Part shown: positions 14,215 to 52,268 of the stretch, piece after piece
Layout: every line of letters begins with the position of its first letter
Position numbering within the stretch: the first letter of the stretch is position 1
Assembly: GCA_026391835.1 (NCBI GenBank)
Contig: JAPLDF010000068.1
Coordinates: forward strand, 313,661 to 377,660
DNA: 64,000 nucleotides
Source of the DNA: Bacteroidota bacterium
Lineage (GTDB): Bacteria; Bacteroidota; Bacteroidia; Bacteroidales; FEN-979
Direction of reading: 5' to 3'
Program-made: the position numbers and the translations under genes
Notes under the pieces: generated by a model
The model's database searches: none
What the model was told of the DNA's origin: nothing
The model's input: only the letters and a program-made list of their open reading frames with translations

Positions 14215-14312
14215 TTAAGTGTTAAGTGTTAAGTGTTAAGTGTTAAGTGTTAAGTGTTAAGTGTTAAGTGTTAAGTGTTAAGTGTTAAGTTTTAAGTGTT
14301 AAGTTTTAAGGA
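14215..14312. repeat. heptamer microsatellite (TTAAGTG)x10 perfect plus 4 degenerate units
   Basis: Counted directly. The period is 7 nt. It starts 10 nt upstream of the ATG (14204) of the T9SS protein gene and ends 34 nt after the TonB receptor stop. No inverted partner lies nearby. Confidence 0.95.
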
Positions 14313-19378: not shown

Positions 19379-20038
19379 TCAATATTCGATATTCCTTTGT
19401 ATCTTCCTGATTCTTACCCGGATATTCATGATCCATACGCCAAGAAGTATCCATCCCAGCATCGCCGGATAAAAAACAACCCGCATGGATGGCTCCAGGT
19501 GCATCGGCAGCACCGGGGGTGAATCCTTCCCCGGGTGGATGCTGTCGCCGGCAAGGCGCGGCATGACCAGTACGAATACGATCCAGAGGAAAAAGGCAAA
19601 GATGTTGTATACCGCCGAAACCTTTGCGCGTTTATGCACATCGTCGATAGAGCCGCGAAGGATCATGTAGGCGAGGTATATGAACAGCCCGACGGCTGCG
19701 CCATTCAGTTTGGGATCCTTCACCCAGGGGGAACCCCAGGTGAAATTTGCCCAGATCATCCCGGTGAAGATACCCAGGAACCCGAACATAAGTCCCACAT
19801 TTACTGCCTCAACAGCAACAAGGTCCTCTGTCTCATCGAATTTCCTCAGATACCGTAAACTATAGATAAATCCGGTTATCAGCATGGAAAACATGCCAAA
19901 CCACATGCCTACGTGAAAAAACAGGTTCCGCATCGTTTCGTGGATCATGGTATCAGGAATCCCAACGAAAAACCCGAAACAGATCGCATATAAGAGCAGC
20001 AAGCCTGATAAAAACTTCCACCAATCCCTTTTTATCAT
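19379..20038 (-). CDS. ccmC: heme exporter protein CcmC
   Basis: 219 aa and polytopic, with the Trp-rich motif WANFTWGSPWVKDPKLNG. Confidence 0.85.
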   Translation of the reverse strand: MIKRDWWKFLSGLLLLYAICFGFFVGIPDTMIHETMRNLFFHVGMWFGMFSMLITGFIYSLRYLRKFDETEDLVAVEAVNVGLMFGFLGIFTGMIWANFTWGSPWVKDPKLNGAAVGLFIYLAYMILRGSIDDVHKRAKVSAVYNIFAFFLWIVFVLVMPRLAGDSIHPGKDSPPVLPMHLEPSMRVVFYPAMLGWILLGVWIMNIRVRIRKIQRNIEY

Positions 20039-20040
20039 TT

Positions 20041-20190
20041 TAGATTTACGATTTTAGATTTACGATTTAATTGCTTAGCAATCATTATAATGTTTATTTA
20101 CTTCCATCTTCAAATCTCCAAATCTTCAAATTTTCAAATCCCCTCTGCTCACTCCCAAATCGTAAATCGAAAATCGTAAATCGAAAATCG
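20041..20190. repeat. intercistronic word-array hairpin (AATCGTA/AATCGAA vocabulary) filling the ccmB-ccmC spacer
   Basis: The left arm is tagatttacgattttagatttacgattt (20041-20068). The right arm is aaatcgtaaatcgaaaatcgtaaatcgaaaatcg (20157-20190). A second word set, cttcaaatctccaaatcttcaaattttcaaatc, lies in between. Confidence 0.9.
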
Positions 20191-23022: not shown

Positions 23023-23137
23023 GGTTATAAATTTTCAGATTTACAAAAGTATTACAATTAATCTTATCATGCAATAGTTTTTGTAAAATTTAACTTTTCA
23101 CAAGGGTTATGAGGGTTATCCCGATTTTTTTGCCTTC

Positions 23138-23773
23138 TTCACCGCGAAGACGCAAAGACGCTAAATTAACAATTTCCTGTATTACCTTTTCGGGTTAAAA
23201 CGATTAAGCATTAATCCTGCACTTTCTCAGAAAAGTTTTTCACCGCTAAGACGCTAAGACGTTAAGGTTTATATGATTGAAATTGTGCTATTTGCGTCTT
23301 TGTGATTAACAGTTATGTTTAAGTTTCCGGGGCGGGTTAAATGGTCTTTTAAAACATATTTAAATGGAAAAACAGAAAATGGAATATGTTGCAAAACAAA
23401 TTGTTGATGCTGGTTACAGGGTACATAAAGAACTTGGCCCCGGATTATTGGAATCGGTTTATCTCTATTGTTTTATGGAAGAGTTGAAATTAAGTGGGAT
23501 CAGAACTGAACAGGAGGTAGTGTTACCGCTTTTTTATCGAGGTAACAAATTGAATAAGGAGTTTCGTTTTGATGTCCTTGTTGAACAGGAGATCATTGTT
23601 GAAATCAAAGCTGTTGAAATTCTTCTGCCTGTGCATCGTGCACAACTGATTTCCTATTTAAAACTATCGAATAAAAAAATGGGATTTCTGATCAATTTTA
23701 AAGTGCCGGCTTTAAAGGATGGAATCCATCGTTTTGTCAACAATTATTAGCGTCTTTGCGCCTTTGCGGTAAA
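23138..23773 (+). other. hairpin-bounded cassette carrying the GxxExxY gene
   Basis: The left arm is ttcaccgcgaagacgcaaagacgctaa (23138-23164). The reverse complement of the right arm (23747-23773) is tttaccgcaaaggcgcaaagacgctaa, a 24/27 match. The gene's stop codon lies inside the right arm. Confidence 0.7.
23364..23750 (+). CDS. GxxExxY protein (PD-(D/E)XK nuclease fold family)
   Basis: 128 aa. It has the motif GPGLLESVY (GxxExxY) and the D..E.K-like FRFDVLVEQEIIVEIK. The size is typical of the family. Confidence 0.85.
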   Translation: MEKQKMEYVAKQIVDAGYRVHKELGPGLLESVYLYCFMEELKLSGIRTEQEVVLPLFYRGNKLNKEFRFDVLVEQEIIVEIKAVEILLPVHRAQLISYLKLSNKKMGFLINFKVPALKDGIHRFVNNY

Positions 23774-23797
23774 AAAGGCATTAAATTTTAATCTATG

Positions 23798-24082
23798 CTT
23801 AGTGTTTCTGGGTGATCTGAGTGCCTAAGTGGTTTTATTGCGCAAATCCTTTTCCTTAGTATCCGCAGGGATGATCGTTGAACGCTGGAATTGGGCATCC
23901 GCCTGTGTGTTTTTTTATCAGAAACCACAAATAACCTCATTTTTATAAGAATTCAAGATCGATTTCTATTTTATTCCAGGATATTTGCATTTAACAGCAA
24001 AAAGAAAACCACTGAGGCACTTAGGGCACTGAGAAACACTGAGATACTTAGTGGACCTGAGTGTCCTTAGTGCCTCAGTGGT
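23798..24082. repeat. word-array inverted repeats (CACTGAG/CACTTAG vocabulary) bracketing 170 bp of non-coding DNA, plus a self-contained hairpin
   Basis: The reverse complement of 23798-23834 is aaccacttaggcactcagatcacccagaaacactaag, which compares with aaccactgaggcacttagggcactgagaaacactgag at 24007-24043. In addition, 24009-24082 folds on itself (ccactgaggcac.../...gtgcctcagtgg). Confidence 0.85.
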
Positions 24083-24179
24083 AATCCATTCCCTATTCCA
24101 AACCAACAAAATAAGGAGCACCTCCCCTCCCTTGTTTTCTGCCAGCCAAAAATACAAGTCTAACCTTTACGTTATTAAT

Positions 24180-26926: not shown

Positions 26927-28093
26927 ATGCGATTGTTTTTTATTTTACCCCGGGTTCCATATCCAACTGAAAAAGGCGACAAACTAAGGGCTTTTCATCA
27001 GATCAAGCAGCTTTCAAAACATCATGAGATCATCCTTTGCGCCCTGAACGACGGAGATTTGCATGAAAATGCAATAGCGGTGCTGAAAAAGTATGTCAAA
27101 GCCATCCATATCATTCCAATTTCGAAGATTTCGATCGCTTTCAACCTGGTAAAGACCCTGTTTTCAAACAAGCCGCTCCAGGTGGGTTATTTTTACAATG
27201 CATCTTCCGCAGCTAAAATTCATTCGCTTATCGAGGAGTATAAGCCGGATCACATCTTCTGCCAGCTGATCCGTGTTGCCGAATATGTAAAGGACATCCC
27301 GATTCCGAAAACACTCGATTACCAGGATGTTTTTTCAAAGGGGGTTGAAAGAAGGCTTGCCACTGCACCTTTTTACCTGAAACCGTTCCTGAAGATCGAA
27401 TACAACCGGCTGCTCCGTTACGAACATGATGCTTTTGAAGCATTCGATCACAAAATGATCATCTCAGCCCCCGACCGCGACATGATCCCGCATCCCGGGC
27501 GGGACCAGATCGTAGTTGTTGCAAATGGCGTGGATACTGATTTTTTCAGTCCGCAGGAGGCCGAAAAGAAGTACGACCTCGTCTTCACCGGCAATATGGG
27601 TTACCCGCCGAACATCAAAAGTGCTGAATTCCTGGTCAACGAAATCCTGCCGGTCGTATTGGCTCAAAAACCCGACCTGAACCTGCTGATTGCAGGAGCC
27701 AGTCCGAACTTACGGGTGATGGCACTAAAATCTTCACAGGTCAGTGTAAGCGGCTGGGTGCCGGATATGCGCGCGTGTTACGCCAGTGCCCGGATATTCA
27801 TTGCCCCCATGCAGATCGGCACCGGTTTGCAAAATAAGATCCTTGAAGCAATGGCCATGCGAATCCCCTGCATCACCTCGCCTCTTGCATTCAAAGCGCT
27901 GAATGCCAGGGAAGGTGTGGATATCCTGGTTGCCTCAACACCGAAAGAGTACGCCGCACACATCATGATGCTCCTGAACAATCCCGGAAAAGCCGGTGAA
28001 ATCGCCCAAAACGGGTACGATTTCGTCCACCGGAATTTCAACTGGGAAACTGAAACCGAAAAGATCAACATGCTGATCGAAGGGGGAAAGTGA
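26927..28093 (+). CDS. glycosyltransferase (GT4-like; the ORF track starts at 26909)
   Basis: MRLFFILPRVPYPTEKGDKLRAFHQIKQL... and the C-terminal FIAPMQIGTGLQNKILEAMAMRIPCITS are typical of group-1 glycosyltransferases. Confidence 0.8.
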   Translation: MRLFFILPRVPYPTEKGDKLRAFHQIKQLSKHHEIILCALNDGDLHENAIAVLKKYVKAIHIIPISKISIAFNLVKTLFSNKPLQVGYFYNASSAAKIHSLIEEYKPDHIFCQLIRVAEYVKDIPIPKTLDYQDVFSKGVERRLATAPFYLKPFLKIEYNRLLRYEHDAFEAFDHKMIISAPDRDMIPHPGRDQIVVVANGVDTDFFSPQEAEKKYDLVFTGNMGYPPNIKSAEFLVNEILPVVLAQKPDLNLLIAGASPNLRVMALKSSQVSVSGWVPDMRACYASARIFIAPMQIGTGLQNKILEAMAMRIPCITSPLAFKALNAREGVDILVASTPKEYAAHIMMLLNNPGKAGEIAQNGYDFVHRNFNWETETEKINMLIEGGK

Positions 28094-28100
28094 ATGGAAT

Positions 28101-28203
28101 AATGCAGGCAATTCAAACAATGCAAACAATGCAATCAATGCAGACAATGCAGGCAATGCAGGCAAATTTTTTTCATTTTGATTTTGATTTTTGATTTTTG
28201 AAA
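28101..28203 (+). repeat. (AATGCANNC)x7 nonamer array followed by an (ATTTTTG)-type T-rich array, ending 9 nt before the ettA ATG
   Basis: Nonamer units: aatgcaggc aattcaaac aatgcaaac aatgcaatc aatgcagac aatgcaggc aatgcaggc. They are followed by tttttttcattttgattttgatttttgatttttg. Confidence 0.9.
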
Positions 28204-29920: not shown

Positions 29921-31708
29921 TTAATTGCCACCAACCAGTTCGATCAGCTGGGGCTGCACCCTTAACCCTTTCAGTTTTATTTGCTGAAGCCGGGCTACAG
30001 CACTGTCCTTCATCCCCAGTTTCATAAAAATGATGACAAGGTTGTTGTGAGCAGAAGTATTCATCGGTTCCAGTTCGATCACTTTCCTCAGGTTGATGAC
30101 TGCACTGTCGTATGATTTTTCGAAAAAATAGACCTTTGCCAACTGGGAATAGATCTCCGCATCCCCTTTCCCTGAGATTTTTAAACCCTCGCCCAGGTAT
30201 CCCTTCACACGGGCGTAATCCTTCTTTTCGAAGGCTATCTGCCCCAGCAGAAAGTAGTTTTCAGGATCTTTTGCGCCCGGCAGGGCCAGTTCATTTTTCA
30301 GGAACTGCTCGGCTTCATCAAGCCGTTTGTTTTTATAGGCGACCTTCCCAAGATTGAGGTTGATATCATCCAGTGTCGGATCGATGGCGTAAGCCTGCCT
30401 TAGGATCCTCTCCTGTTCCGCATCATCCTCAACCCATGTGCCCATCATCTGCAATGAATAGGCATTTCGGGGAGTTTCGGCAACAGCCCGGCTCCAGTAG
30501 GAAAGCGGGCTGGAAAAATAACCAGCCCTGTTGAAACTCATCACACCGAAGACCAGGATAACGCTCCCGAACAAAATGAAACGGTAACTGCCTTTTAATT
30601 TGCCGGTTAAAAAAACGTTGTGGCTTAAAAGAAGTTGTATGCCGGCCAGGGGTACATAGAGGCGGTGCTCATACACAAGGTCGCTGAAGGTTTTTGGCAC
30701 GGCAAGTACCGGCAGGAGGAAGAGGAGAAACCAGGCCCCGCCGATCAATGTCAGGGGCTTGCGGTAACTGCCTTTGGAAATCACCAGAAAACAAATCCCT
30801 GCAAGCGCAAGAATGCCCCACACCACGGAAATCTCGTTGATCTGCGGATGCACCGACAGGTTCACAGGTAAGATCGTCTTGCCAAGGTATTGCAGGATTG
30901 CCGGAAAACGGCCAAGCCCAGATGCGATCATTTCATCCACCGGGAACCTGTTCCCTGACTTTTTGACAAAGGACTCCATGAAAAACCAGAACACGATCAC
31001 GCTGCACCAGCCGATACAAAGGGAAATTAAAGATTTCCAAGGTATTTTCAGGACGCTGCTGAGGATAAAAAAGGCGAGAAGGGGAATGATGATGGCTGTT
31101 TCCTTTGTAAAAACTGCAAGCAGGAAAAAGAAGACCTGGAGAGCATATACGCCCCATTTTCGAGAAATGGCAAAATCAATGGAAAAGATCATGCATGACA
31201 GGAGAAAAACCATGAGCAGCAGGTCATTCTGCCCGGGAATCCAGGCTACCGCATGGCTGATCGCCGGGTGAACCGCAAACAGCAGTGCCAGGATCAGCGA
31301 TGTTGTTTCGTCAATGTTTACTTTCTTAAAAAACAGGTACAGCAGGATCACCGACAGGATATGGAGGAGCAGGCTGGTAAAATGGTATCCACCGGGAGCC
31401 TCCCCGAAAAGCTGGTATTCCGTGATCAAGGCAACAAGGAACAACGGCCGGTAATAGTCGTAGGCTGTTTTATCGGCCGGCTGGAAAACGCCCCGTTCAA
31501 AAACCCTGCAAATATTAGACACATCCTTGTTGTAATCCTTGTTTTTGATGATAAAGTTGGCATCGTCAATACCGATGAACTGGAGAGTGACCACCTTGAT
31601 ATATACCGTCAGCGGGACAAGGACCAGCAGCATCAGCCTGTATTTCCAAAAAAAGGAGCGGATGCCGTTTTGAGGGGTGATCTTCCTGTTAACAATGCCT
31701 GCTTTCAC
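29921..31708 (-). CDS. polytopic membrane protein with C-terminal TPR repeats (PMT/TMTC-like glycosyltransferase architecture)
   Basis: 595 aa. About 10 hydrophobic segments are followed by TPR-like repeats (..YSLQMMG..AYAIDP..LGKVAYKNKRLDEAEQF..). Confidence 0.6.
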   Translation of the reverse strand: MKAGIVNRKITPQNGIRSFFWKYRLMLLVLVPLTVYIKVVTLQFIGIDDANFIIKNKDYNKDVSNICRVFERGVFQPADKTAYDYYRPLFLVALITEYQLFGEAPGGYHFTSLLLHILSVILLYLFFKKVNIDETTSLILALLFAVHPAISHAVAWIPGQNDLLLMVFLLSCMIFSIDFAISRKWGVYALQVFFFLLAVFTKETAIIIPLLAFFILSSVLKIPWKSLISLCIGWCSVIVFWFFMESFVKKSGNRFPVDEMIASGLGRFPAILQYLGKTILPVNLSVHPQINEISVVWGILALAGICFLVISKGSYRKPLTLIGGAWFLLFLLPVLAVPKTFSDLVYEHRLYVPLAGIQLLLSHNVFLTGKLKGSYRFILFGSVILVFGVMSFNRAGYFSSPLSYWSRAVAETPRNAYSLQMMGTWVEDDAEQERILRQAYAIDPTLDDINLNLGKVAYKNKRLDEAEQFLKNELALPGAKDPENYFLLGQIAFEKKDYARVKGYLGEGLKISGKGDAEIYSQLAKVYFFEKSYDSAVINLRKVIELEPMNTSAHNNLVIIFMKLGMKDSAVARLQQIKLKGLRVQPQLIELVGGN

Positions 31709-31806
31709 AACGACTTTTTAAATGCCGGGGTAAACGTACAATAAATCTTCATACGGAAGTTATTTCAAAGGTAAATTTTTATAGGCAGACGGGGAAAACA
31801 CCTCAC

Positions 31807-31878
31807 CCTTCGACTACGCTCAGGGCAGCGCCTTCGACTGCGCTCAGGGCAGCGCCTTCGACTACGCTCAGGGCAGCG
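31807..31878. repeat. 24-bp tandem repeat x3 (ccttcgactacgctcagggcagcg)
   Basis: The units are 31807-31830, 31831-31854 (one substitution) and 31855-31878. Confidence 0.95.
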
Positions 31879-31915
31879 CCCCTGAGAAACTGTCTTAAAA
31901 GCATGAAACCTTATT

Positions 31916-31994
31916 TTCACCGCGAAGACGCCAAGACGCAAAGAGTTGATTATCAATAATTTTATTTTTCGAGTCTTTGCGTCTTCCCGGTGAA
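31916..31994. repeat. 'empty' hairpin with the same arms as the GxxExxY cassette
   Basis: The left arm is ttcaccgcgaagacgccaagacgcaaaga. The reverse complement of the right arm is ttcaccgggaagacgcaaaga. The loop is ~29 nt and AT-rich. The first 16 nt are identical to 23138-23153. Confidence 0.9.
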
Positions 31995-32366
31995 ATTTGA
32001 CTTTTGAGACAACCTCAGAATCATTTTACCAGCATAATTGCATCCGGTTTTCATCTATGGTATAAAAAAGAAAAAACATTGGGAAAAATGACACCCGGAT
32101 ACTCTAAAAACAACAGGGCCGACTCCGTAGGAGTCGTATTTTGGTAGAACTGCAGACACGTTCATAATCATCGGCCCTGTAGGGGCCGGATTATCAGCAA
32201 TGGTAAAAAACAGAAATTTATCATTTATAATTCTTCATAATTATTTTGGCTTTGCGTCTATGTTTTTTACAGATATTCGGCCCCTACAGGACCGGCAGGT
32301 TGTATTCCCCTCCTATTGCTACCCATATTTGATCCCTCCGAGATCATCCCCTTGCGGGGACTGACT

Positions 32367-32553
32367 GCCACGATGAATTGTCATTAAACCACGTTGAAAC
32401 TGCGTACAAGCAGGTAGAAACCACGATGAATCGTCATAAAACCACGTTGAAACTGCGTACAAGCAGGTAGAAACCACGATGAATCGTCATAAAACCACGT
32501 TGAAACTGCGTACAAGCAGGTAGAAACCACGTTGAAACTGCGTATAAGCAGGG
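32367..32553. repeat. 53-bp tandem repeat, 3.5 copies
   Basis: The unit is ccacgatgaatcgtcataaaaccacgttgaaactgcgtacaagcaggtagaaa. Copies 2 and 3 are identical, copy 1 has 3 differences, and the last copy is partial. Confidence 0.95.
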
Positions 32554-32670
32554 ATTGTTCAGAAAAGTGTGTCAGGGGGACTTTTGCAATTTGTTTTCAA
32601 ACGGAACGGTAATGGTATGAATTAATATCCGAAATTTGAGTCCGCTTCGATAAGTAAAAAAAGCAAGAAG

Positions 32671-34604: not shown

Positions 34605-34680
34605 CAAGGAAAAATGTAAAACGAACCTGGGCAACTGCCATCCTCAGCGCCCGCAGCATGATTATCGGGGCAGAGTAAGG

Positions 34681-34761
34681 AATGCAGGCAATGCAGACAA
34701 TGCAAATAATGCAGGGAATGCATAAAGAGAACCCCAGGTAATTTTTAATTTTTAATTTTTA
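34681..34761 (+). repeat. (AATGCANNN)x5 nonamer array followed by (ATTTTTA)x3, ending 10 nt before the hutH-like ATG
   Basis: The sequence is aatgcaggc aatgcagac aatgcaaat aatgcaggg aatgcataa ... attttta attttta attttta. The composite layout matches 28101-28203. Confidence 0.9.
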
Positions 34762-36320: not shown

Positions 36321-36512
36321 GAGTCCGCTCCGAAAAATAATAAAACAAAGAAATGCCACTAAGCCACAAGGACACCTGGAAACACAAAGTGATAAATATC
36401 TGCAGCATAAGCCTGTTGAACCTTTATGACTCTGTGACCATGTGACTCTGTGACCTTGTGACTCTGTGACTTAGTGACTTTGTGTCATATAACTATTTTT
36501 CGGAGCAGGCTC
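36321..36512. repeat. nested hairpins: an outer stem with a word-array hairpin in its loop
   Basis: The outer stem is gagtccgctccgaaaaata (36321-36339) against tatttttcggagcaggctc (36494-36512). The inner arms are gccactaagccacaaggacacctggaaacacaaagtga (36355-36392) and tgactctgtgaccatgtgactctgtgaccttgtgactctgtgacttagtgactttgtg (36427-36484). Confidence 0.85.
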
Positions 36513-36539: not shown

Positions 36540-36935
36540 ATGGAATTTTCAGATACCATTCCTTTCTGGCCGGTTTTCGTGGCCCTGATCGTGCCCCTCA
36601 TCATTTTTGGCATTATGGTAAGCGTCATCGAAATCGTTGGAGCCTGGTTCATGTTCCAGAAAGCCGGGGAACCCGGCTGGGCCGCGATCATCCCGGTTTA
36701 CAACTACCTGATCGGCATTAAAATTGCCGGAAAGCCATGGTGGTACATACTTTTAATGCTAATTCCCGTGGTAAATGTCGTGATCTACATCATGATCATG
36801 GACGGGCTGGCAAAAAGTTTCGGGAAGGGAACCGGGTTTACCATCGGGCTGATATTCCTGCGGTTTATTTTTGTCCCCGTTCTTGGATTCGGAAACGCCG
36901 TTTACAGTGGAGACAAATCACATTTTGACGCATAA
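36540..36935 (+). CDS. DUF5684-like small membrane protein
   Basis: 131 aa. FQKAGEPGWAAIIPVYNYLIGIKIAGKPWWYILLMLIPVVN is typical of that family as I remember it. Confidence 0.65.
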   Translation: MEFSDTIPFWPVFVALIVPLIIFGIMVSVIEIVGAWFMFQKAGEPGWAAIIPVYNYLIGIKIAGKPWWYILLMLIPVVNVVIYIMIMDGLAKSFGKGTGFTIGLIFLRFIFVPVLGFGNAVYSGDKSHFDA

Positions 36936-36938
36936 CGG

Positions 36939-37379
36939 ATGGAAGAACTTACCCCCGGGGCTTTGCCCGAAACCAAACCCCAGCGGCCTACCCTGCTCAC
37001 GGTTTTATGCATCCTGACGTTTATCGGCAGCGGGATGAACCTGTTCTCAGGCCTTGTCATCGCCGGATTTTATGATGTTTTTGTTGAAATTGTACAGGAA
37101 TTCGGCAAAAAATTCAACATCCCGGGCATCGACCAGCTTCTTGAAGCCAGGCCACTGTTTTTCCTGGTTACCGCACTCTTTTATGCAGGATCGATCGTCG
37201 GGGCGATCCTGATGATGCAGTTAAAAAAAACCGGGTTCCATGTCTATACCATTTTCCAGATCCTGCTGGTCATTGCGCCCATGTATTTTATGCACCTATC
37301 GAGCCCCGGTTTTCCTGAAATGCTGTTCTCCGGGTTGTTTATACTCCTTTACAGCATGAACCTTAAATTCATGTCCTGA
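36939..37379 (+). CDS. hypothetical 4-TM membrane protein
   Basis: 146 aa, paralogous in layout to the next gene (..RPTLLTVLCILTFIGSG.. / ..MMQLKKTGFHVY..). Confidence 0.55.
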   Translation: MEELTPGALPETKPQRPTLLTVLCILTFIGSGMNLFSGLVIAGFYDVFVEIVQEFGKKFNIPGIDQLLEARPLFFLVTALFYAGSIVGAILMMQLKKTGFHVYTIFQILLVIAPMYFMHLSSPGFPEMLFSGLFILLYSMNLKFMS

Positions 37380-37381
37380 CC

Positions 37382-37816
37382 ATGACCGAAGAGACCGAAG
37401 AGACCAAACAAAGCGAACCCGGCAATACCAAACCGGTGAAACCCCGCCCGGTATTGCTTACCGCTTTGTGCCTCTTTTCTTTTGTATATTTTGGCCTGCT
37501 GGCCCTGCTGTTCCTCCCGGGAATTTTTTATTCCGGGGCCATTACGGGAGTGATTGACAAATACCTGCCAACGGGTTTATATTCAAATACCGAAATCCGG
37601 ATGGTCTTTGCAGCAGGGTTCCTGCTGCATGCCCTTGGGCTGGCGGGTTCCATTGTGATGTGGAACCTTAGGAAAACAGGGTATTACCTGCTCGCTGGTG
37701 CCTGTATCATAGTGGCATCCATGCAGACTTTCCGGCCCGACATTTCAGTGACATCCACCGCAGTGTATATTATTTTCATCCTGCTTTTTGGCGTCTTCTT
37801 CAAACGGTTGCACTGA
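37382..37816 (+). CDS. hypothetical 4-TM membrane protein (paralog of the previous gene)
   Basis: 144 aa with ..RPVLLTALCLFSFVYFG.. and ..MWNLRKTGYYLL... Confidence 0.55.
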   Translation: MTEETEETKQSEPGNTKPVKPRPVLLTALCLFSFVYFGLLALLFLPGIFYSGAITGVIDKYLPTGLYSNTEIRMVFAAGFLLHALGLAGSIVMWNLRKTGYYLLAGACIIVASMQTFRPDISVTSTAVYIIFILLFGVFFKRLH

Positions 37817-37833
37817 GTTATTGTCTGTTCAAA

Positions 37834-38055
37834 TTTCCCAGCCAAAATAAAATGCTGAAAGTATGATTACCTTTTCCCGTTTTTCCGATTAAGCAATAAT
37901 TAAGGACAGCAATATCCCTTATGATGAATTAATCTGGTGTCAACCGCTCTGTGCTTCTCCGGGTGTGATCTGTGTCTCTCTGTGCAACAAATAATTACAC
38001 GGAGGGTCACAGAGATCTGTGAAGAACCACAGAGAGAAAAAACGAAATAATTCCC
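37834..38055 (+). repeat. composite element copy A: conserved ~100-nt module plus CACAGAG-word hairpin plus short tail
   Basis: tttcccagccaaaataaaatgctgaaagtatgattaccttttcccgtttttccgattaagcaataattaaggacagcaatatcccttatgat... is followed by the hairpin 37947-38036. It is near-identical to copy B over the first ~130 nt. Confidence 0.9.
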
Positions 38056-38187
38056 TTATCTTTGTACAGGTAAAGTTTAAGTTGCTCAGCTTTATGCATG
38101 CGCCCACCCTTAAAAAATATTTCTGGTTTCAATCTTCGTGAGGTGTCCGTATAGTTTTTTAGTACAGGACAAGGCAGGATTTATTAT

Positions 38188-38245
38188 AGCTTATACAAAG
38201 CTTATACAACAGCTTATACAAAGCATATGCAATAGCTTATACAAC
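38188..38245. repeat. 11-12-nt tandem words (agcttatacaa[a/c]) x5
   Basis: agcttatacaa agcttatacaac agcttatacaa agcatatgcaat agcttatacaac. Confidence 0.85.
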
Positions 38246-38363
38246 GACAGATCAACGTTGCATAATTTCAGGTACATTTATTGGATTATCAGGTAATAAT
38301 GGCGAAGAATGCAGCTCCTCGCCAACCCTCGCCCAGGATGAGGACCCCCTCCCCGATCCTCCC

Positions 38364-38590
38364 CATGGAGGCTACTCTTTATACAAATCTTTCCCAGCCA
38401 AAATAAAATGCTGAAAGTATGATTACCTTTTCCCGTTTTTTCGATTAAGCATTAATTAAGGACAGCAATATCCCTTATGATGAATTAATCTGGTGTCAAC
38501 CGCTCTGTGCTTCTCCGTGTGAGCTCGGTGTCTCTGTGTAACAAATAATTACACGGAGGTTCACGGAGATCCGGAGAGAACCACAGAGAG
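38364..38590 (+). repeat. composite element copy B (with the 5' extension catggaggctactctttata shared with copy C)
   Basis: The module is 38390-38502 and the hairpin is 38503-38590. The hairpin arms differ from copy A at many positions while the module is almost identical. Confidence 0.9.
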
Positions 38591-38606
38591 GTCATTATAA
38601 ATCAGT

Positions 38607-38972
38607 TCACGGGTGTGATGACATAATGATGGTGGTGATCATCATGCTCCGGTTCGATGTAGGTTTTCCATCGGCTATGGAGGTGACTATACGGTATCCT
38701 TTGTCGCTGAGCATGTTTAGCGTCCGGGCAAGTGTCCTGCCGTTCCTTACAAGGTATTCATCGTTGTATTTAAAGGGTTCAAGGGGAATTACTTCAAAGG
38801 TGCTGTCGGGGTAGTTTACGATGATCTTTGAAGATGTGACAGAAAAGTTTTCATACACCCTCAAGACCAAATACCTGCCATTATCCGTTCCGGGCTGAGC
38901 CACAAATCCCGTCAATATTCCCAAAACCATTAAAACCGACAGGGGCGCCACAAGCAAGATCCATTTTTTCAT
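38607..38972 (-). CDS. hypothetical exported protein
   Basis: 121 aa with an N-terminal hydrophobic signal or anchor. I recognise no motif. Confidence 0.5.
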   Translation of the reverse strand: MKKWILLVAPLSVLMVLGILTGFVAQPGTDNGRYLVLRVYENFSVTSSKIIVNYPDSTFEVIPLEPFKYNDEYLVRNGRTLARTLNMLSDKGYRIVTSIADGKPTSNRSMMITTIIMSSHP

Positions 38973-45018: not shown

Positions 45019-45056
45019 AAAAAAAGCTGCCCCGTTTTAAAGGGCAGCTTTTTTTT
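45019..45056. terminator. bidirectional terminator between convergent genes
   Basis: aaaaaa agctgccc cgttttaaa gggcagct tttttttt. Confidence 0.8.
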
Positions 45057-46176
45057 ATTCCCTGATCCAGCACCTTCGCCTGATATTGACACGGCCGTCA
45101 TAATTTTTCCAGATTGAGATCGCCTTAAAGTTTTCCTCGAGTTGCGGATGTGTTCTGGCAATTTTGATTCCGGCAGCAATGTATGCCTTGTTCAGTTCAT
45201 GGTAAATAAGCGCCAATACTCCTTTTCCCTGGTAATCGGGCCTTACGCCGATCAGGTACATATGGATCGTGTCATTTTTCCGCATCGCACGCAGCAGGTG
45301 GATGAACCCGAACGGAAACAGGTGCCCGTTTGCCTTCTGCAGGGCCAGTGAAAGGTCCGGCATCGTTATCCCAAACCCGGCAACATCATCGTTTGAATCC
45401 AGGATCATCGAAACAAATTCGGGCCTGATAAATCCGAAATATTGTTTGGTATAATCATCCATCTGTTCCCTGGTAAGCGGTGTAAAGCCATATAAATCAT
45501 GAAAGGCCTCATTGTACATGGCGAACATCTTCGCAGCATAGGGCCTGATATCGGAAGCCTTCTGCGGCTTTAACAAATGCAGGTCGTACTTTTGCATCAC
45601 GATCCTTGTCATCCGTTCAACCTTTGCCGGAATTTCACCAGGGATCATGATCTCAAACTGAACCCAGTCGGTTGCCTTCCGGAACCCAAGCTGTTGAATA
45701 TGATCATTGTAATAGGGGAAATTATAGATCGCCGAAAGGCTGGATATCTGGTCAAAGCCTTCAACCAGCATGCCTTCCGGGTCCATATCGGTAAATCCCA
45801 GCGGCCCGTGAATTCCTGTCACTCCCTTGCTCCTGCCCCAGGCATTGACTGTATCAATCAAAATACGGGAAACCTGCGTGTCGTCAATGAAGTCAACCCA
45901 GCCAAACCTGACAAGCCGGGTGTTCCAGCGTTCAAACTCCTTATGGTTGATGATCCCTGCAATCCGGCCAACCGGCACACCTTCACGGTAAGCCAGCCAG
46001 TATTCGGCTTCACAATAAGAAAAGGCTGGATTTTTATCTTTGCGTAGGGTTTTTATCTCGTCAAACTTCAGTGGTGGGACCCAGAACTTATTTCCTTTAT
46101 ATAATTGAAAAGGAAAGTCAACGAATTTTTTAAGGTCGTTGTGTGTTGAGACCTTTTTTACCAGGATTTCACCCAT
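45055..46176 (-). CDS. GNAT-like N-acyltransferase, paralog of 51123..52268 (candidate bacterial ceramide-synthase-type enzyme)
   Basis: 373 aa, alignable end to end with the 381-aa protein of the Spt operon (LYKGNKFW, NPAF.(Y/F)CEAEYWL, LVRFGW(V/I)DF(I/V)DD, IHGPLGF(T/S)DMD, GVRPDY, RRCWI). Roughly half or more of the positions are identical by eye. Confidence 0.5.
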   Translation of the reverse strand: MGEILVKKVSTHNDLKKFVDFPFQLYKGNKFWVPPLKFDEIKTLRKDKNPAFSYCEAEYWLAYREGVPVGRIAGIINHKEFERWNTRLVRFGWVDFIDDTQVSRILIDTVNAWGRSKGVTGIHGPLGFTDMDPEGMLVEGFDQISSLSAIYNFPYYNDHIQQLGFRKATDWVQFEIMIPGEIPAKVERMTRIVMQKYDLHLLKPQKASDIRPYAAKMFAMYNEAFHDLYGFTPLTREQMDDYTKQYFGFIRPEFVSMILDSNDDVAGFGITMPDLSLALQKANGHLFPFGFIHLLRAMRKNDTIHMYLIGVRPDYQGKGVLALIYHELNKAYIAAGIKIARTHPQLEENFKAISIWKNYDGRVNIRRRCWIRE

Positions 46177-48371: not shown

Positions 48372-49178
48372 CTACTTGGATTTGGCTACTTCACCAAATC
48401 TGAAAATATAACCAACGGAGAATCCAAAATTCCGGTTACACAGTGGATAGTATGGCAATAAGTCATTGTTTGAAGCATAGTCATTATAATCGGTTTTCTG
48501 ACCGGCTGTGGGATTATCCACGCCAATGAATCCCCAGTTATACCTGAAATCCAACACAAGGTCGCCAGGTCCCAGACGCACACCCGGCTGTACACCAAAC
48601 GTAAGGCCTGCGTCGAGCCTCATGGCTTTGTATGCACCTCTCGGGCCACCTGTTTTGCCATTGTCATCGGAAGTCTCTCCCTGTCCAAACTCAACGGTGT
48701 ACTCCTTTTTCTGGGTCGTGTTTTCATAATATTTTTCATTTGCACCGAGCGCAACACCCACATAAGGTCCGATGATCCCATAAACACTGAACATGCCGAA
48801 TTTATAACCGCCTTTGAAGAGAATTGGCATGGTGAAATAGTTGTATGTTGCTGTAGATTTGTATTCAATTGTTTTTCCGGAGATATCGCTTGAATTTGTC
48901 ATCTTAGAACCTTTTTGTTCAAAATTAAACTCTATTTCCATACCAAACATTTTACTGAACATTGGGTTTAACACAAAGCTGACCTGCAACCCGATTTTAG
49001 GCGGATTTAAAACTGATGCATTAACGAAATCGTCACTCACAAGTTTTGACCAGTTCGAATATTTGGATGCTGTCATACCGAATCTCATCCCAAGACCAAA
49101 GCCCTGACTGAATGATTCAAATGAGGAGATCACCAACAGGGATACCAGAATTGCACATAGTAGATGTTTTGTTTTCAT
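48372..49178 (-). CDS. outer membrane beta-barrel protein (porin-family, OMP_b-brl type)
   Basis: 268 aa with a signal peptide, and typical Bacteroidota small-barrel features (GFGLGMRFG...; C-terminal ...GYIFRFG). Confidence 0.7.
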   Translation of the reverse strand: MKTKHLLCAILVSLLVISSFESFSQGFGLGMRFGMTASKYSNWSKLVSDDFVNASVLNPPKIGLQVSFVLNPMFSKMFGMEIEFNFEQKGSKMTNSSDISGKTIEYKSTATYNYFTMPILFKGGYKFGMFSVYGIIGPYVGVALGANEKYYENTTQKKEYTVEFGQGETSDDNGKTGGPRGAYKAMRLDAGLTFGVQPGVRLGPGDLVLDFRYNWGFIGVDNPTAGQKTDYNDYASNNDLLPYYPLCNRNFGFSVGYIFRFGEVAKSK

Positions 49179-49516
49179 CGTGTTGAGGTTTAGTTAATAA
49201 TTGGTTTATATTAAATTGCTCATGTGGAGTTTAATTCAATGGCTCATTTGGCTTTTCGCACCTCTTGATGCGACAAATATAAAAAAAAAACATGTTGTTG
49301 TTCAGTTTTTGTGAAAAGTTTATCAATTATTATCCGCGTAACATTTCTATCATATATTCCGGCTGGCTTATCGGGATATTTGCCTGCAATTTTAGCGTCA
49401 TGCCGGAACACATATGTTTTTGATGTTTTAAGTAAAAAGGTTTCACGCAAATATGATTATTACGGAAACGAATCCGGCAAAACAAAAGGAGCATACTCCT
49501 GTTCGGGCTCGTTTTT

Positions 49517-50035
49517 CATGGAGGCTACTCTTTATAGACGTCTTTCCCAGCCAAAATAAAATGCTGATAGTTTGACTACCTTTTCTTGTTTTTCCGATTA
49601 ATCAATAATGAAGGATGGCAAAATCCCTTATGATTCCTAGCTTCTGACGCTTCTCTATTTTTGTGCGATGCCATTTTTCAAGTAATTGAATTTGAATGAA
49701 GCAACCGAATTGCTGGCAATATTTGTTGCGAGCATTAAAACGGGTAAGCTGGATACCGGGGGAAAAGTACGAAGTATAAAGTACAAAGTACAAACGAAAG
49801 TGGGAAGTACAAAGTTCGAAAGACGAACACTGGCATGCTAATCCCAACCTTTGTACTTCGTCATTCGTACATCGTACTTCGCGGTGTACCGCACAAAATG
49901 TCAGAAGTCAGGAACTGGAGTTAACCCCTCTGTGCTTCTCCATGTGGGCTCTGTGGCTCTCAGTGTAACAAATAAATTACACGGAGGTTCACAGAAATCT
50001 GGAGAGAACCACAGAGAGAAAAACCGAAATGATGG
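49517..50035 (+). repeat. composite element copy C, split by a ~280-bp nested insertion
   Basis: The module is 49517-49634 (about 10 substitutions versus copy A). The insertion is 49635-49914. The hairpin and tail are 49915-50035 (ccctctgtgcttctcc...accacagagagaaaaaccgaaat). Confidence 0.9.
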
Positions 50036-50097
50036 AACTCAATAAGATTATGGGTCAGGGAGAGGCCAAATTGTAGACAAAAACAACCATCCGGAAA

Positions 50098-51102
50098 TTA
50101 AAGCCAGTGTTCTTTTTTATACCATGCGAGGGCTTCTGCAACACCTTTCTCCAGGTCATATTCAGCTTTAAACCCGAAGTCCTTTTCAAGGGGTTCTACT
50201 TCACACCGCCAGTTGGTACTTTTCAGGACATTGTATTTGTCGGTATTTAAGGTTGGGATACTTCCCCATAATCCTGTTACCCGCTCGCCGATTGTTGCAA
50301 TGGTTTTGACAAGGAACAGGGGTACCGTAAAACGCAGTGTCTTCTTCCCCAGTGCCTTTTTGGTGATTTCAGCAAACAATTCCGAAGGGTACTCTTTCCC
50401 ATCAGAAACGAACCATGCCTTGTTTACATGCTGTGAAGCCAGTGCCAGGAAGATGAGCCGGACGAGGTCACGAACATAAATGAACGTAAGAACCTGCTTT
50501 TTGAATCCGATGTATGGCTCCAGTCCCCTGTTGATCGTCTGGAAAAATATGAAGTAATCTTTTTCCTTGGGCCCGTAAACCCCGGTGGGTCGCACGATCA
50601 GCCATGGAAAACCGGTGAGGGAGGTAATGTACCGTTCAGCTTCAAGCTTACTTTTACCGTACAGTTCAATCGGTTTTGGTTCATGGGTGTTCCTGACTGG
50701 TTCGCCGGTATCCGGGTTACCAGGGCCGTATGCTGCCAGGCTGCTGACAAAAAGAAACTTTTCAGGTACCATATCCGCTTCTTTGAGGGCTTCAATAAAA
50801 TGGATGGTATTCCGGCAGTTTACGTTGTAAAAATCTTCTTTTTTCTGTGCCTTTGTAAGCCCGGCGTTGTGAATGATGTATTTAAACCGGATATTGTTCT
50901 TTTTGCACTCATCCAGGGTAACCAGAACCTTTTCACGGCTTGAGAAGTCAAATTCAAGAAATTGAATCCGCTTATCCTGCAAATAACCACGGGAGCTTGA
51001 CTTACGGATACCTGCATAAACCTCCAAACCCTGTTTCAATCCCTCATCTACCAGGAAACTGCCGATGAACCCGCTGGCCCCGGTTATCAATACATTTGCC
51101 AT
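50098..51102 (-). CDS. NAD-dependent epimerase/dehydratase family (extended SDR) reductase; candidate CerR-type keto-reductase
   Basis: Starting from MANVLITGASGFIGS (ATG 51102) avoids the 34-nt overlap implied by the ORF-track start 51156. It has the Rossmann motif TGASGFIG and a catalytic YGKSK. Confidence 0.6.
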   Translation of the reverse strand: MANVLITGASGFIGSFLVDEGLKQGLEVYAGIRKSSSRGYLQDKRIQFLEFDFSSREKVLVTLDECKKNNIRFKYIIHNAGLTKAQKKEDFYNVNCRNTIHFIEALKEADMVPEKFLFVSSLAAYGPGNPDTGEPVRNTHEPKPIELYGKSKLEAERYITSLTGFPWLIVRPTGVYGPKEKDYFIFFQTINRGLEPYIGFKKQVLTFIYVRDLVRLIFLALASQHVNKAWFVSDGKEYPSELFAEITKKALGKKTLRFTVPLFLVKTIATIGERVTGLWGSIPTLNTDKYNVLKSTNWRCEVEPLEKDFGFKAEYDLEKGVAEALAWYKKEHWL

Positions 51103-51122: not shown

Positions 51123-52268
51123 CTATTTCGTTAATTCGAAATGCTTTATCCAGCAACGCCTCGTCAAATGCTGCCTGCCATTGAAATTTTTCCAGATGGT
51201 AAGCGCCTTGGCATTGTCTTCAAGCTGAGGGTTGGTAATTGCTTTCTTGATTCCATATTTGATATAAGCCCGGTGCATTTCATTATAATAGAGGGCATTC
51301 ACCCCTTTTGAATGATAATCGGGACGAACGCCGTTCAGGTACATATCAATGGTATCGTTCTTTTTCATCGCCCGCAGGAGGTAAATAAAACCAAAGGGAA
51401 ACAGTTTCCCGTCGCATTTTTGCAGGGCCTTTGTCAGTGATGGCAATGAAACGCCAAAACCAACAACTTCATCCTCCTCATCGATCACAAAAGAGATAAA
51501 TTCGGGGCGTACAAAGCCAAAGTAGGCTTTAATATACATATCTACCTGCTTCTGTGTCAGGGCTGTATAACCGTAAAGGTCGCCAAACGCGGCGTTCAGT
51601 GTGCGAAACATTTTAGGGGCGTAAGGCAGCAGGTCTTTTGCCTTTTTTGTTTTGAGCACCCTGAGTTTGTATTTTTCCTGCACGAGGAGGGATAACCGTT
51701 CCACCTTGTCGGGGATGGAAGGGGGGATGTCGAATTCATATTGCACCCAGTCGGCTGCTTTGGAAAAGCCGAGATGCTCCATATGTTCAACATAATAGGG
51801 ATAATTGTAAATCGATGCAAGCGTGGCCAGTTCATCAAAGCCCTTGATCAGCATCCCTTCATTGTCCATATCGGAAAAGCCAAGCGGACCATGGATGCCA
51901 TTCATCCCTTTTGACCGTCCCCATTCGAGAACTGTTTCAATCAGGAGACGGGAAACTTCCTTATCGTCAACAAAATCGATCCAGCCAAAGCGCACCAGTT
52001 TTTCATTCCAGCGCTCATTGGCTTTGTTGTTGATGATCCCGGCAACCCGGCCAACGATCTCTTTGCCACGATAAACAAGCCAATACTCAGCCTCACAAAA
52101 ATCAAAAGCAGGGTTTTTCTCCCTGCTCAGTGTGTTCATCTCATCCATCCGCATCTGCGGACACCAGAACTTATTACCCTTATAAAGTTTATTTTGAAAA
52201 GCGATGAACCGTTTGAGATCCTTTTTTGTGATAACTTTTTTTAGTTCAAGCTGGTTTGTGTTTGTCAT
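51123..52268 (-). CDS. GNAT-like N-acyltransferase; candidate bacterial ceramide synthase (bCerS-type)
   Basis: 381 aa, sandwiched 5 nt after the Spt-like gene and 20 nt before the SDR gene. The C-terminal half is GNAT-like (..GVRPDYHSKGVNALYY..). Confidence 0.5.
   Translation of the reverse strand: MTNTNQLELKKVITKKDLKRFIAFQNKLYKGNKFWCPQMRMDEMNTLSREKNPAFDFCEAEYWLVYRGKEIVGRVAGIINNKANERWNEKLVRFGWIDFVDDKEVSRLLIETVLEWGRSKGMNGIHGPLGFSDMDNEGMLIKGFDELATLASIYNYPYYVEHMEHLGFSKAADWVQYEFDIPPSIPDKVERLSLLVQEKYKLRVLKTKKAKDLLPYAPKMFRTLNAAFGDLYGYTALTQKQVDMYIKAYFGFVRPEFISFVIDEEDEVVGFGVSLPSLTKALQKCDGKLFPFGFIYLLRAMKKNDTIDMYLNGVRPDYHSKGVNALYYNEMHRAYIKYGIKKAITNPQLEDNAKALTIWKNFNGRQHLTRRCWIKHFELTK

Follow-up and report, generated by a model that had tools for sequence, protein, structure and literature searches.

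The 64,000-nt stretch of a Bacteroidales genome analysed here (contig JAPLDF010000068.1 of assembly GCA_026391835.1, positions 313,661 to 377,660; hereafter the window) holds three copies, A, B and C, of a hairpin-rich composite element, the third of which is split by a 280-bp insert at 49635-49914. It is proposed that this insert is what remains of a small selfish cassette after the loss of most of its four-helix-bundle gene, a gene of the family that was first met within rRNA intervening sequences; we assign this reading a probability of about 0.85. Sequence comparisons indicate that the 280 bp are a derived insertion of a discrete element bounded by inverted repeats and not an ancestral segment, and copy C is explained by one insertion and one later internal deletion. 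The closest known system is the S23p-encoding intervening sequence (IVS) of 23S rRNA. Features are listed in Table 1; fetched loci and proteins are given as L and P numbers.

Boundaries and folding of the insert

All three composite copies consist of a module, a hairpin of CTCTGTG/CACAGAG words and an A-rich tail, and copy C (49508-50035) lies in a 0.9-kb spacer between an epimerase gene (50098-51102, minus strand) and an outer membrane protein (OMP) gene (48372-49178, minus strand). A first-pass annotation of this DNA had described copy C as colinear with A and B except that gaattaat is swapped for 49635-49914; a MAFFT alignment (A, 37790-38080; B, 38330-38640; C, 49480-50070) agrees to the base, with colinearity on either side and 280 nt where A and B read gaattaat, and the coordinates and strings quoted in that annotation are all exact. 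An uninterrupted composite is also present at locus L001, from a Bacteroidales metagenome-assembled genome (MAG), which reads gagtaattaat at the insert position, so that the three empty copies, from two genomes, share the linker g(a/agt)aattaat. One filled site (C) thus stands against three empty ones (A, B and L001), and the insert is taken as derived because all three are without it; the opposite case, named by the annotation as one in which its idea would fail, is that of an ancestral segment with A and B as deletion derivatives. The change in copy C is a replacement of 8 nt by 280 nt and not a clean insertion. The module ends in a small leader hairpin, GATTAA...TTAATC, which is seen in copy A (arms 37887-37906 and 37915-37934), and the 8 nt lost from copy C make up its 3' arm. 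Scans for the composite module gave one true relative (L001) and one chance match among genome contigs (21-mer) and 14 matches, all of chance type, among metagenomes (19-mer); the module is rare in public data, since L001 was the sole true relative obtained. Exact-protein look-ups of the genes at this locus found a single sample on record, SRR20698638, and yielded no orthologous locus.

The insert has two layers of complementary ends, here called the shell: outer arms of 15 nt (49634-49648 and 49900-49914, 87% complementary) and second-layer arms of 18 nt (49650-49667 and 49890-49907, 78% complementary). Inside the shell stands a GTACNAA hairpin with 30-nt arms (49765-49794 and 49850-49879, 80% complementary); the heptamer has seven matches inside 49767-49877 as compared with 0.12 expected for the whole window. 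These measurements bear out the earlier description of an insert bounded by complementary words and containing an inner GTACNAA-word hairpin. Folding of a 291-nt segment gives z scores of -6.2 and -6.3 for the two strands, equalled by 0 of 200 shuffles, and the shell stem closes the minimum-free-energy fold of the window copy on both strands and of the related element L032. Rfam found nothing beyond noise in the window at gathering or E-value thresholds, and no rRNA family either.

The left junction is found in a second assembly: the Logan contig L003 is 100% identical from the module across the left junction to 179 nt into the insert, and stops at ~49813 in the heptamer arm, and another Logan contig, L018, stops at ~50000 inside the CTCTGTG hairpin. 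Both short-read contigs thus end inside hairpins, and most contigs that carry homologs of the GxxExxY or four-helix-bundle genes discussed below are only 0.5-2 kb long; hairpin elements are systematically under-seen because they break short-read assemblies.

Table 1. Features of the composite copies, the insert and the intact GxxExxY cassette, in window coordinates.
Feature	Position	Strand	Remarks
Intact GxxExxY cassette	23126..23785	+	Gene 23364-23750 (PDDEXK_3), bracketed by a 39-nt inverted repeat (I3) of CGCAAAGA words
Composite copy A	37836..38051	+	Uninterrupted; empty-site reference (direct-repeat search, MAFFT)
Composite copy B	38364..38592	+	Uninterrupted; empty-site reference (direct-repeat search, MAFFT)
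Module, 5' half of copy C	49508..49634	+	87% identity to B, 89% to A, 81-85% to L001
Leader box ACCTTTTCTTGTTTTTCCGATTAATCA	49578..49605	+	Common to GxxExxY and four-helix-bundle cassettes; 93% over 28 nt to L032 572-599
280-bp insert	49635..49914	+	Probable internally deleted shell and four-helix-bundle cassette; takes the place of gaattaat (alignment, blastn)
Left shell arm	49635..49667	+	Terminal inverted repeat TCCTAGCTTCTGAC at 49635-49648 and subterminal arm cttctctatttttgtgcg; inverted repeats I8, I9
Putative deletion junction TGAATGA	49693..49699	+	7-nt microhomology; two L032 blastn blocks overlap by precisely 7 nt
Last 18 codons NEATELLAIFVASIKTGK of a four-helix-bundle gene (PF05635 / 23S_rRNA_IVP)	49695..49748	+	85-92% to P0121, P0122, P0123
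GTACNAA-heptamer hairpin HP2	49763..49890	+	3' hairpin after the four-helix-bundle gene in every copy; 82-91% to HP units of L031-L040
TACCGCACAAA	49887..49897	+	Right copy, still present, of the 11-nt direct repeat TACCGCACTAA
Right shell arm	49890..49914	+	cgcacaaaat and terminal inverted repeat GTCAGAAGTCAGGA(A)
3' half of copy C	49915..50028	+	CTCTGTG/CACAGAG-word hairpin and A-rich tail GAGAGAAAAACCGAA; 85% to A, 87.5% to B; inverted repeats I6, I10, I14, I15
15-codon truncated open reading frame (ORF), MMELNKIMGQGEAKL-stop	50029..50076	+	Candidate decayed GxxExxY start

The stub of a four-helix-bundle gene

The interior plus-frame peptide LNEATELLAIFVASIKTGKLDTGGKV has three matches only, at 85-92% identity, in a collection of 5.8 billion proteins; two of these are annotated as PF05635 (23S_rRNA_IVP) and one as "four helix bundle protein". 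A family hidden Markov model (HMM) built from 120 members was searched against 2595 six-frame fragments of the window and L001, and its sole match is 49686-49838 on the plus strand (E 9.4e-6, profile positions 97-121 of 125), the next best having an E value of 7. For P0124, a full-length relative of 144 aa, the PDB match is 2RLD (1e-22), with an alignment that ends ...FVASIKTAK, and the window is considered to retain the end of the last helix because that alignment ends at the equivalent residues. The frame of the stub crosses the hairpin arm and is closed only by a TAA in the loop (49839-49841), and the remaining ~30 residues of the matched "proteins" are likewise read-through into the hairpin arm. 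A PF05635 match produced by mis-translated hairpin repeats is unlikely, since the match comes from 18 codons that precede the repeat arm and correspond in the alignment to the last 2RLD helix. Pfam and PDB searches with the short peptides alone proved too insensitive for the purpose, and among viral contigs the right-end 18-mer gave two chance matches and the coding stub none.

In L032, L036 and L037, as in the window (49749-49841), the ORF meets no stop codon in the left arm of the 3' hairpin and closes at the same loop TAA; the read-through tail, of ~30 residues, is rich in K and T and absent from the 2RLD fold. A minus-strand reading of the insert as the 3' remnant of a GxxExxY gene (..FKFNYLKNGIAQK-stop) was ruled out: a subfamily HMM and Pfam found nothing for it, and the plus-strand four-helix-bundle reading is the right one.

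The parent element and its relatives

The insert ends TCCTAGCTTCTGAC...GTCAGAAGTCAGGA(A) recur, with 85-91% identity and differing flanks, in five more copies, which lie on four contigs of metagenome or MAG origin: L031 (two copies; MAG GCA_026391845.1), L032, L033 and L036. The L032 unit measures 745 bp (279-1023), and the fuller form is reconstructed at ~0.7-0.84 kb. From left to right, L032 comprises the end TCCTGACTTCTGAC, a subterminal arm, ~70 nt, TACCGCACTAA, GTACNAA hairpin 1, ~50 nt, the leader box ACCTTTTCCTGTTTTTCCGATTAAGCAAAAAACAGG, the gene from its ATG onward, GTACNAA hairpin 2, TACCGCACTAA and the right end GTCAGAAGTCAGGA(A). Its terminal inverted repeat is perfect over 14 nt. 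The left end TCCTGACTTCTGAC is shared by L031 copy 2, the right shell end is identical in all five copies, and the 11-nt direct repeat TACCGCACTAA brackets the cassette inside the shell in L032, L036 and L031 copy 2. Beyond the right end the sequence is different in the window, in both L031 copies and in L032, L033 and L036, and before the left end three different sequences are found. The full copies encode four-helix-bundle proteins of 144 aa.

Two blastn blocks relate the window copy to L032, 49635-49699 to 279-343 (87.7%) and 49693-49914 to 802-1023 (91.4%, E 4e-86), and from the TGAATGA junction to the right end L031, L032, L033 and L036 match at 85-91%. The TGAATGA heptamer is found at both sites in L036 and L032. 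As compared with full copies, the window copy is short of 0.41-0.56 kb, a stretch that holds the leader box, the hairpin upstream and most of the gene. This comparison indicates that the window copy is a microhomology deletion derivative and not a precursor, because the homology blocks overlap by TGAATGA and coding sequence is kept.

The junctions of the GTACNAA hairpin with the gene end and with the right shell arm are the same in L031, L032, L033 and L036. Shell and inner hairpin thus arrived as one unit, since the internal junctions are the same in every shell-bearing copy, and by this comparison the inner hairpin is a built-in 3' part of the cassette and not a separate insertion at copy C. 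The modules vary among relatives: L032 has both hairpins and the shell, L036 has shell and gene without the upstream hairpin, and L037, L039 and L040 have the order hairpin-leader-gene-hairpin without the shell. In a comparison of the kind made for long terminal repeats, the flanking hairpins of L037 are identical over the ~120-nt hairpin and 95% identical over the 127-nt unit, and the L032 pair is 87% identical. Decay has taken other forms elsewhere, L032 being short of 31 codons in frame and L033 carrying a frameshift. A gene-less copy on L031 (1078-1315, minus strand, 238 bp) consists of the shell and one hairpin, the expected product of recombination between two direct-repeat hairpins; this copy is an independent unit elsewhere of the kind that the first-pass annotation had suggested looking for.

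On L031 the inverted shell copies 1-327 and 1078-1315 surround a ~750-bp segment with a gene for a 119-aa Fib_succ_major-domain protein, an arrangement that resembles a composite transposon. Relatives of the element also adjoin further hairpins and word arrays (L032, L037). One such case concerns the AGCTTATACAA word array at 38188-38244, between composite copies A and B, which is found reverse-complemented at L032 1090-1156 (86-92%), adjoining the four-helix-bundle element; the same word families travel together in different genomes.

The host composite and GxxExxY cassettes

The module of the composite contains a leader box that also precedes the GxxExxY genes of L019, L025 and L027, and in L032, L036 and L037 the box precedes four-helix-bundle genes. 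The pattern ACCT(C/T)TT, 6-16 nt, GATTAA is found 4 times in the window as compared with 0.03 times in shuffles, and the leader cores of the module and of the intact GxxExxY cassette at 23126-23785 align locally with scores of 21-23 against 10.3 +/- 1.4 for shuffles. The gene of that cassette (23364-23750) matches Pfam at 2.7e-38 and TIGR04256 at 4e-40; its leader box lies at ~23184-23210, and a gene-less mini-hairpin (23239-23309) sits between the box and the start codon. Close homologs (77-80% identity) in three unrelated contexts show the same order of word arm, leader box GTATTACCTTTTC..CCGATTAA, gene and right word arm, the last of which starts directly after the stop codon. Downstream of the CTCTGTG hairpin, copy C and L001 read ATGGAACTC..., and L001 has, at the position of the truncated ORF of copy C, ATGGAACTCGACAGGATTACGGAGAAAATTATTGG (MELDRITEKIIG..), which looks like a GxxExxY N-terminus and offers weak evidence of one. 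The tail resembles GAAAAACAGAAAATGGAA, found at the start of the intact gene at 23364, with a local alignment no better than shuffles, and Pfam gave no match for the truncated ORF of either C or L001. From these sequence features, the host composite is probably the leader of a decayed small-gene cassette of the GxxExxY type, with a word hairpin already present between leader and start codon.

Several further observations concern these cassettes. The cassette at 23126-23785 is a second case of a hairpin right downstream of a leader box. At L001 3890-4010 the truncated ORF enters, after 12 codons, a CCCTTGTCC array and then AGTGGAGC words, just upstream of mraZ. In another genome, tandem cassette decay is seen at L025 ~2690-2790 (also in L026), where an intact GxxExxY cassette is closely preceded by the truncated 3' end of a second GxxExxY gene, which has its right word arm and a leader box of its own (2542). 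A solo hairpin in the window, caccgcgaagacgccaagacgcaaagag...tctttgcgtcttcccggtg at 31917-31990, matches the stop-codon end and right arm of the GxxExxY cassettes of L019-L030 and is a gene-less mini-hairpin remnant of GxxExxY type.

Alternative explanations

The view that the 280 bp are ancestral, with A, B and L001 as deletion derivatives, draws on the replacement of 8 nt by 280 nt, which is not a clean insertion with target duplication; it is hardly credible against three independent copies in two genomes that are without the 280 bp and have the same linker, a segment that has its own terminal inverted repeats, and five other copies of the unit with different flanks and no module or CTCTGTG hairpin adjoining. 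An assembly artefact, in the form of a chimeric join across repeats, is very unlikely as well. Positions 49813-50000 and the right junction come from one assembly, and the Logan contigs break at ~49813 and ~50000; the left junction, however, is seen again in the independent Logan assembly (run SRR20698638), both junctions coincide exactly with inverted-repeat termini, and the interior is colinear with elements from other metagenomes as the flanks are with A and B. A chimera is unlikely because a random join would not meet agreement of junction, interior and flanks together. The first-pass annotation had instead proposed three successive, site-selective insertions of independent hairpins at copy C, a model that we regard as quite improbable. 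Separable modules (L037 without shell, L036 without upstream hairpin), the 11-nt direct repeat around the cassette inside the shell and the clustering of hairpin-rich elements are in its favour, but the arrangement of shell, hairpin and gene stub, with identical junctions in L031, L032, L033 and L036, predates arrival at copy C, and the inner hairpin directly adjoins the 18 codons left of the gene that it normally follows. What stands of that proposal is a discrete element inside an older hairpin-rich element; repeated insertion at copy C does not, as the hairpin is integral to the cassette. The shell, hairpins and gene are separable across the family, so nesting is real in the history of the family and not as three insertions at copy C. 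The inserted unit is also more than the hairpin element described earlier, being a gene cassette stripped of its gene, and site selectivity is not shown, as three complete copies are without common target motif or target duplication.

A host regulatory structure (a terminator, insulator or RNA-processing site) between the epimerase and OMP genes, which would be compatible with a selfish origin, is unlikely. The 0.9-kb spacer separates genes of the same strand, the minus-strand RNA folds strongly (z -5.3 to -6.3) and a similar word hairpin stands in the ccmB-ccmC spacer (20037-20188); against this, terminator-like sites number 2 as compared with 1.2 expected, with no T-tract signature beyond chance, there is no Rfam match, and the sequence is that of a decayed gene cassette met in unrelated contexts. 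Cassettes of integron type, in which the ~125-nt hairpins would serve as sites resembling attC or Vibrio cholerae repeats (VCRs) and be moved by an integrase, are suggested by the promoter-less small genes between direct copies of a ~125-nt imperfect hairpin (L037), an arrangement like that of the VCR cassettes of chromosomal integrons. We give this scenario almost no weight, because a regular-expression search for attC boxes (RYYYAAC...GTTRRRY) found no pairs in the hairpin regions tested (the window locus, the GxxExxY cassette, L032 and L037), the scanned window ORFs, which include most of the larger ones, encode no integrase, the cassettes are single and scattered rather than arrayed, and the outer shell ends are inverted and not direct.

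Several points weigh against the reading of copy C as a selfish cassette remnant within the leader of another such cassette. The right junction 49914/49915 is supported by this assembly alone, both Logan contigs ending in hairpins. No second copy of the insert exists within the 64-kb window or L001, which bears on its multicopy status, and no further remnant was detected by the narrow-family HMM. As for the host, its GxxExxY identity depends on ~12 codons of L001 and on a leader box that is also common to four-helix-bundle cassettes. The absence of target duplication together with the loss of 8 bp of target is a poor fit to a classical DDE transposon. Finally, the mechanism of mobility, the processing by RNase III and any role of the four-helix-bundle and GxxExxY proteins are inferred.

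Relation to known systems

S23p-encoding IVSs of 23S rRNA are attributed to Coxiella burnetii and Leptospira (Ralph & McClelland 1993; Afseth 1995; both as cited in PMC4990558). In Coxiella the IVS, a selfish element of 428 nt, has a terminal stem of 28 bp and a decaying S23p ORF, is cut by RNase III and shows a mobility that is unexplained (PMC4990558). The element described here is like these IVSs in its size class of 0.4-0.8 kb, its paired terminal inverted repeats, the PF05635 ORF in the loop and the decay of that ORF, in being without a recognisable transposase, and in an insertion that takes the place of part of an older hairpin. It is unlike them in lying in spacers of protein genes and in the leader of another cassette, and not in rRNA (helix 25 or 45), and in adding ~125-nt heptamer-word hairpins, a leader box shared with GxxExxY cassettes and gene-less derivatives. 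The element agrees with an IVS in ORF family and closing stem and departs from one in lying outside rRNA. ORFs of PF05635 have elsewhere been reported in rRNA insertions of candidate phyla radiation (CPR) bacteria and between cas genes.

Correia/NEMIS elements of Neisseria are miniature inverted-repeat transposable elements (MITEs) with RNA-level activity, TA target duplication and no known coding parent. They resemble the gene-less copies found here, of 238-280 bp, as short, non-autonomous, intergenic inverted-repeat hairpins, and differ from them in that our element is without target duplication and has a parent with a non-transposase gene. As regards the MITE class as a whole, terminal inverted repeats are present, target duplication is not, and the parent encodes a four-helix-bundle protein only and no transposase; the copy number is one in the 64-kb window and two within 1.3 kb on L031. 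Diversity-generating retroelements (DGRs) use a DNA hairpin or cruciform next to the target for target recognition. The protein family of the lost gene is the likeness to DGRs, whose accessory protein Avd (cf. PMC10053308) belongs to the PF05635 family. The cassette found here differs in standing alone: the window ORFs scanned include no reverse transcriptase, and the repeats found in the window or the fetched loci include no template/variable pair, for which no dedicated search was made. The GxxExxY family (TIGR04256 / PF13366 PDDEXK_3) shares inverted arms of word repeats and the leader box (host composite and 23126-23785), but the insert has a four-helix-bundle stub and not a GxxExxY stub. 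In integrons with VCRs, small genes or spacers are flanked by ~120-nt imperfect palindromes. Such flanking palindromes, and a plausible structural recognition of ends, are common ground with these integrons and with repetitive extragenic palindromes, their bacterial interspersed mosaic elements and the associated tyrosine transposases (REP/BIME-RAYT); the cassettes differ in the lack of attC boxes and of an integrase, in that the window ORFs scanned include no Y1 transposase, and in arms that are tandem 7-9-nt words, different for each cassette lineage.

Proposed history and mechanism

We propose that a unit of shell and cassette landed in the host leader, replacing 8 bp (the 3' arm of the GATTAA/TTAATC hairpin) and leaving no duplication, and that a TGAATGA-TGAATGA deletion, before or after arrival, stripped the upstream parts to leave the shell, the 18-codon stub and the 3' hairpin. 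Target duplication is absent at the junctions of three complete copies, with 8 target bases lost at copy C, and no target motif is common to the three. The ORF scan of the window found no transposase, integrase or reverse transcriptase, and the window is otherwise an ordinary Bacteroidota chromosome with a ccm operon, LptF/G, HisRS, SusC/D, POR and RecQ. Movement might occur in trans, by some activity that recognises paired inverted-repeat or hairpin ends, and could follow a route of break-and-repair or template-switch type, in which no duplication arises and target bases may go. Homing by leader-box homology was ruled out, as what abuts the host leader is the left end of the shell rather than the leader box, and the flanks of L032 and L031 are without leader sequence. 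In transcripts of either strand the ends would pair into a long stem, a putative substrate for an RNase III-type enzyme as for the Coxiella IVS, and insertion into transcribed spacers such as ccmB-ccmC (20037-20188) would be tolerable because of such cleavage. Decay by microhomology deletion or by recombination between direct-repeat hairpins could then yield gene-less, MITE-like hairpins. The copy C element itself is probably non-autonomous and inert as a gene, a non-coding fossil.

A wider reading, which we hold only tentatively and at less than even odds, is that these elements form an undescribed Bacteroidota class of modular selfish cassettes, free-living relatives of rRNA IVSs, with either PF05635/Avd-like or GxxExxY PD-(D/E)XK genes, a common leader box, lineage-specific arms of 7-9-nt words and an optional shell; they would move without duplication, with a preference for targets in or next to one another's hairpins, and would decay to the many gene-less word hairpins in the intergenic spacers of the window. 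If this is true and the GxxExxY nuclease or the four-helix-bundle protein drives mobility, two large orphan families would gain a role, and the entry of IVSs into rRNA helices would also be accounted for.

The origin and mobility of rRNA IVSs and the function of their S23p/four-helix-bundle ORFs have been unresolved since the descriptions of the 1990s (PMC4990558), and a full-text search finds the GxxExxY family almost absent from the open literature, with 3 papers in all. Copy C and its relatives supply filled and empty sites resolved to the base, an element that lies outside rRNA and has inverted-repeat ends that are defined, variants with and without each of the modules (shell, flanking hairpins, gene), gene-less derivatives by two deletion routes, and a leader box common to two orphan gene families, four-helix-bundle and GxxExxY. 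With these sites, variants and leader box now in hand, hypotheses of mobility and RNA processing are directly testable. An element of the rRNA-IVS kind also lives outside rRNA genes, since the copy C remnant sits in the leader of another decayed small-gene cassette.

Other hairpins and repeats in the window

Right after the intact GxxExxY cassette, hairpins of CTTAGTG/CACTGAG words cluster in one spacer (23798-24097), with arms at 23798-23839 and 24002-24043 and at 23993-24043 and 24047-24097. At 20037-20188, in the spacer of ccmC-like and ccmB genes and so within an operon, there is a hairpin built of TTTACGA/AAATCGT heptamers (32 nt, 94% complementary), inside which lies a ATCTTCAA array. 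Arrays of one 9-nt word (AATGCAGAC) lie in the same orientation 6.5 kb apart, at 28083-28169 and 34663-34731, and enclose four genes, for an ABC-F ATPase, a TPR/PMT_2 protein, a DUF6016 protein and HisRS. Between two minus-strand genes stands a near-perfect TTAAGTG tandem array of 13.7 copies (14215-14310), with no complementary arm seen nearby. The 1-kb spacer 31634-32670 holds tandem repeats at 31807-31880 (24 nt x 3.1) and 32368-32552 (53 nt x 3.2), of 96-97% identity, as well as short, GC-rich hairpins of ggccctgtaggggcc form. A hairpin of CACAAAG / TGACTCTG-type words (36380-36490) precedes three ORFs for small membrane proteins (36540-37816), for which Pfam and NCBIfam gave no match. On either side of copy C, 6 kb apart, are the paralogous GNAT-like genes 45055-46176 and 51123-52268, which share a 50-nt stretch of 80% identity (family D9).

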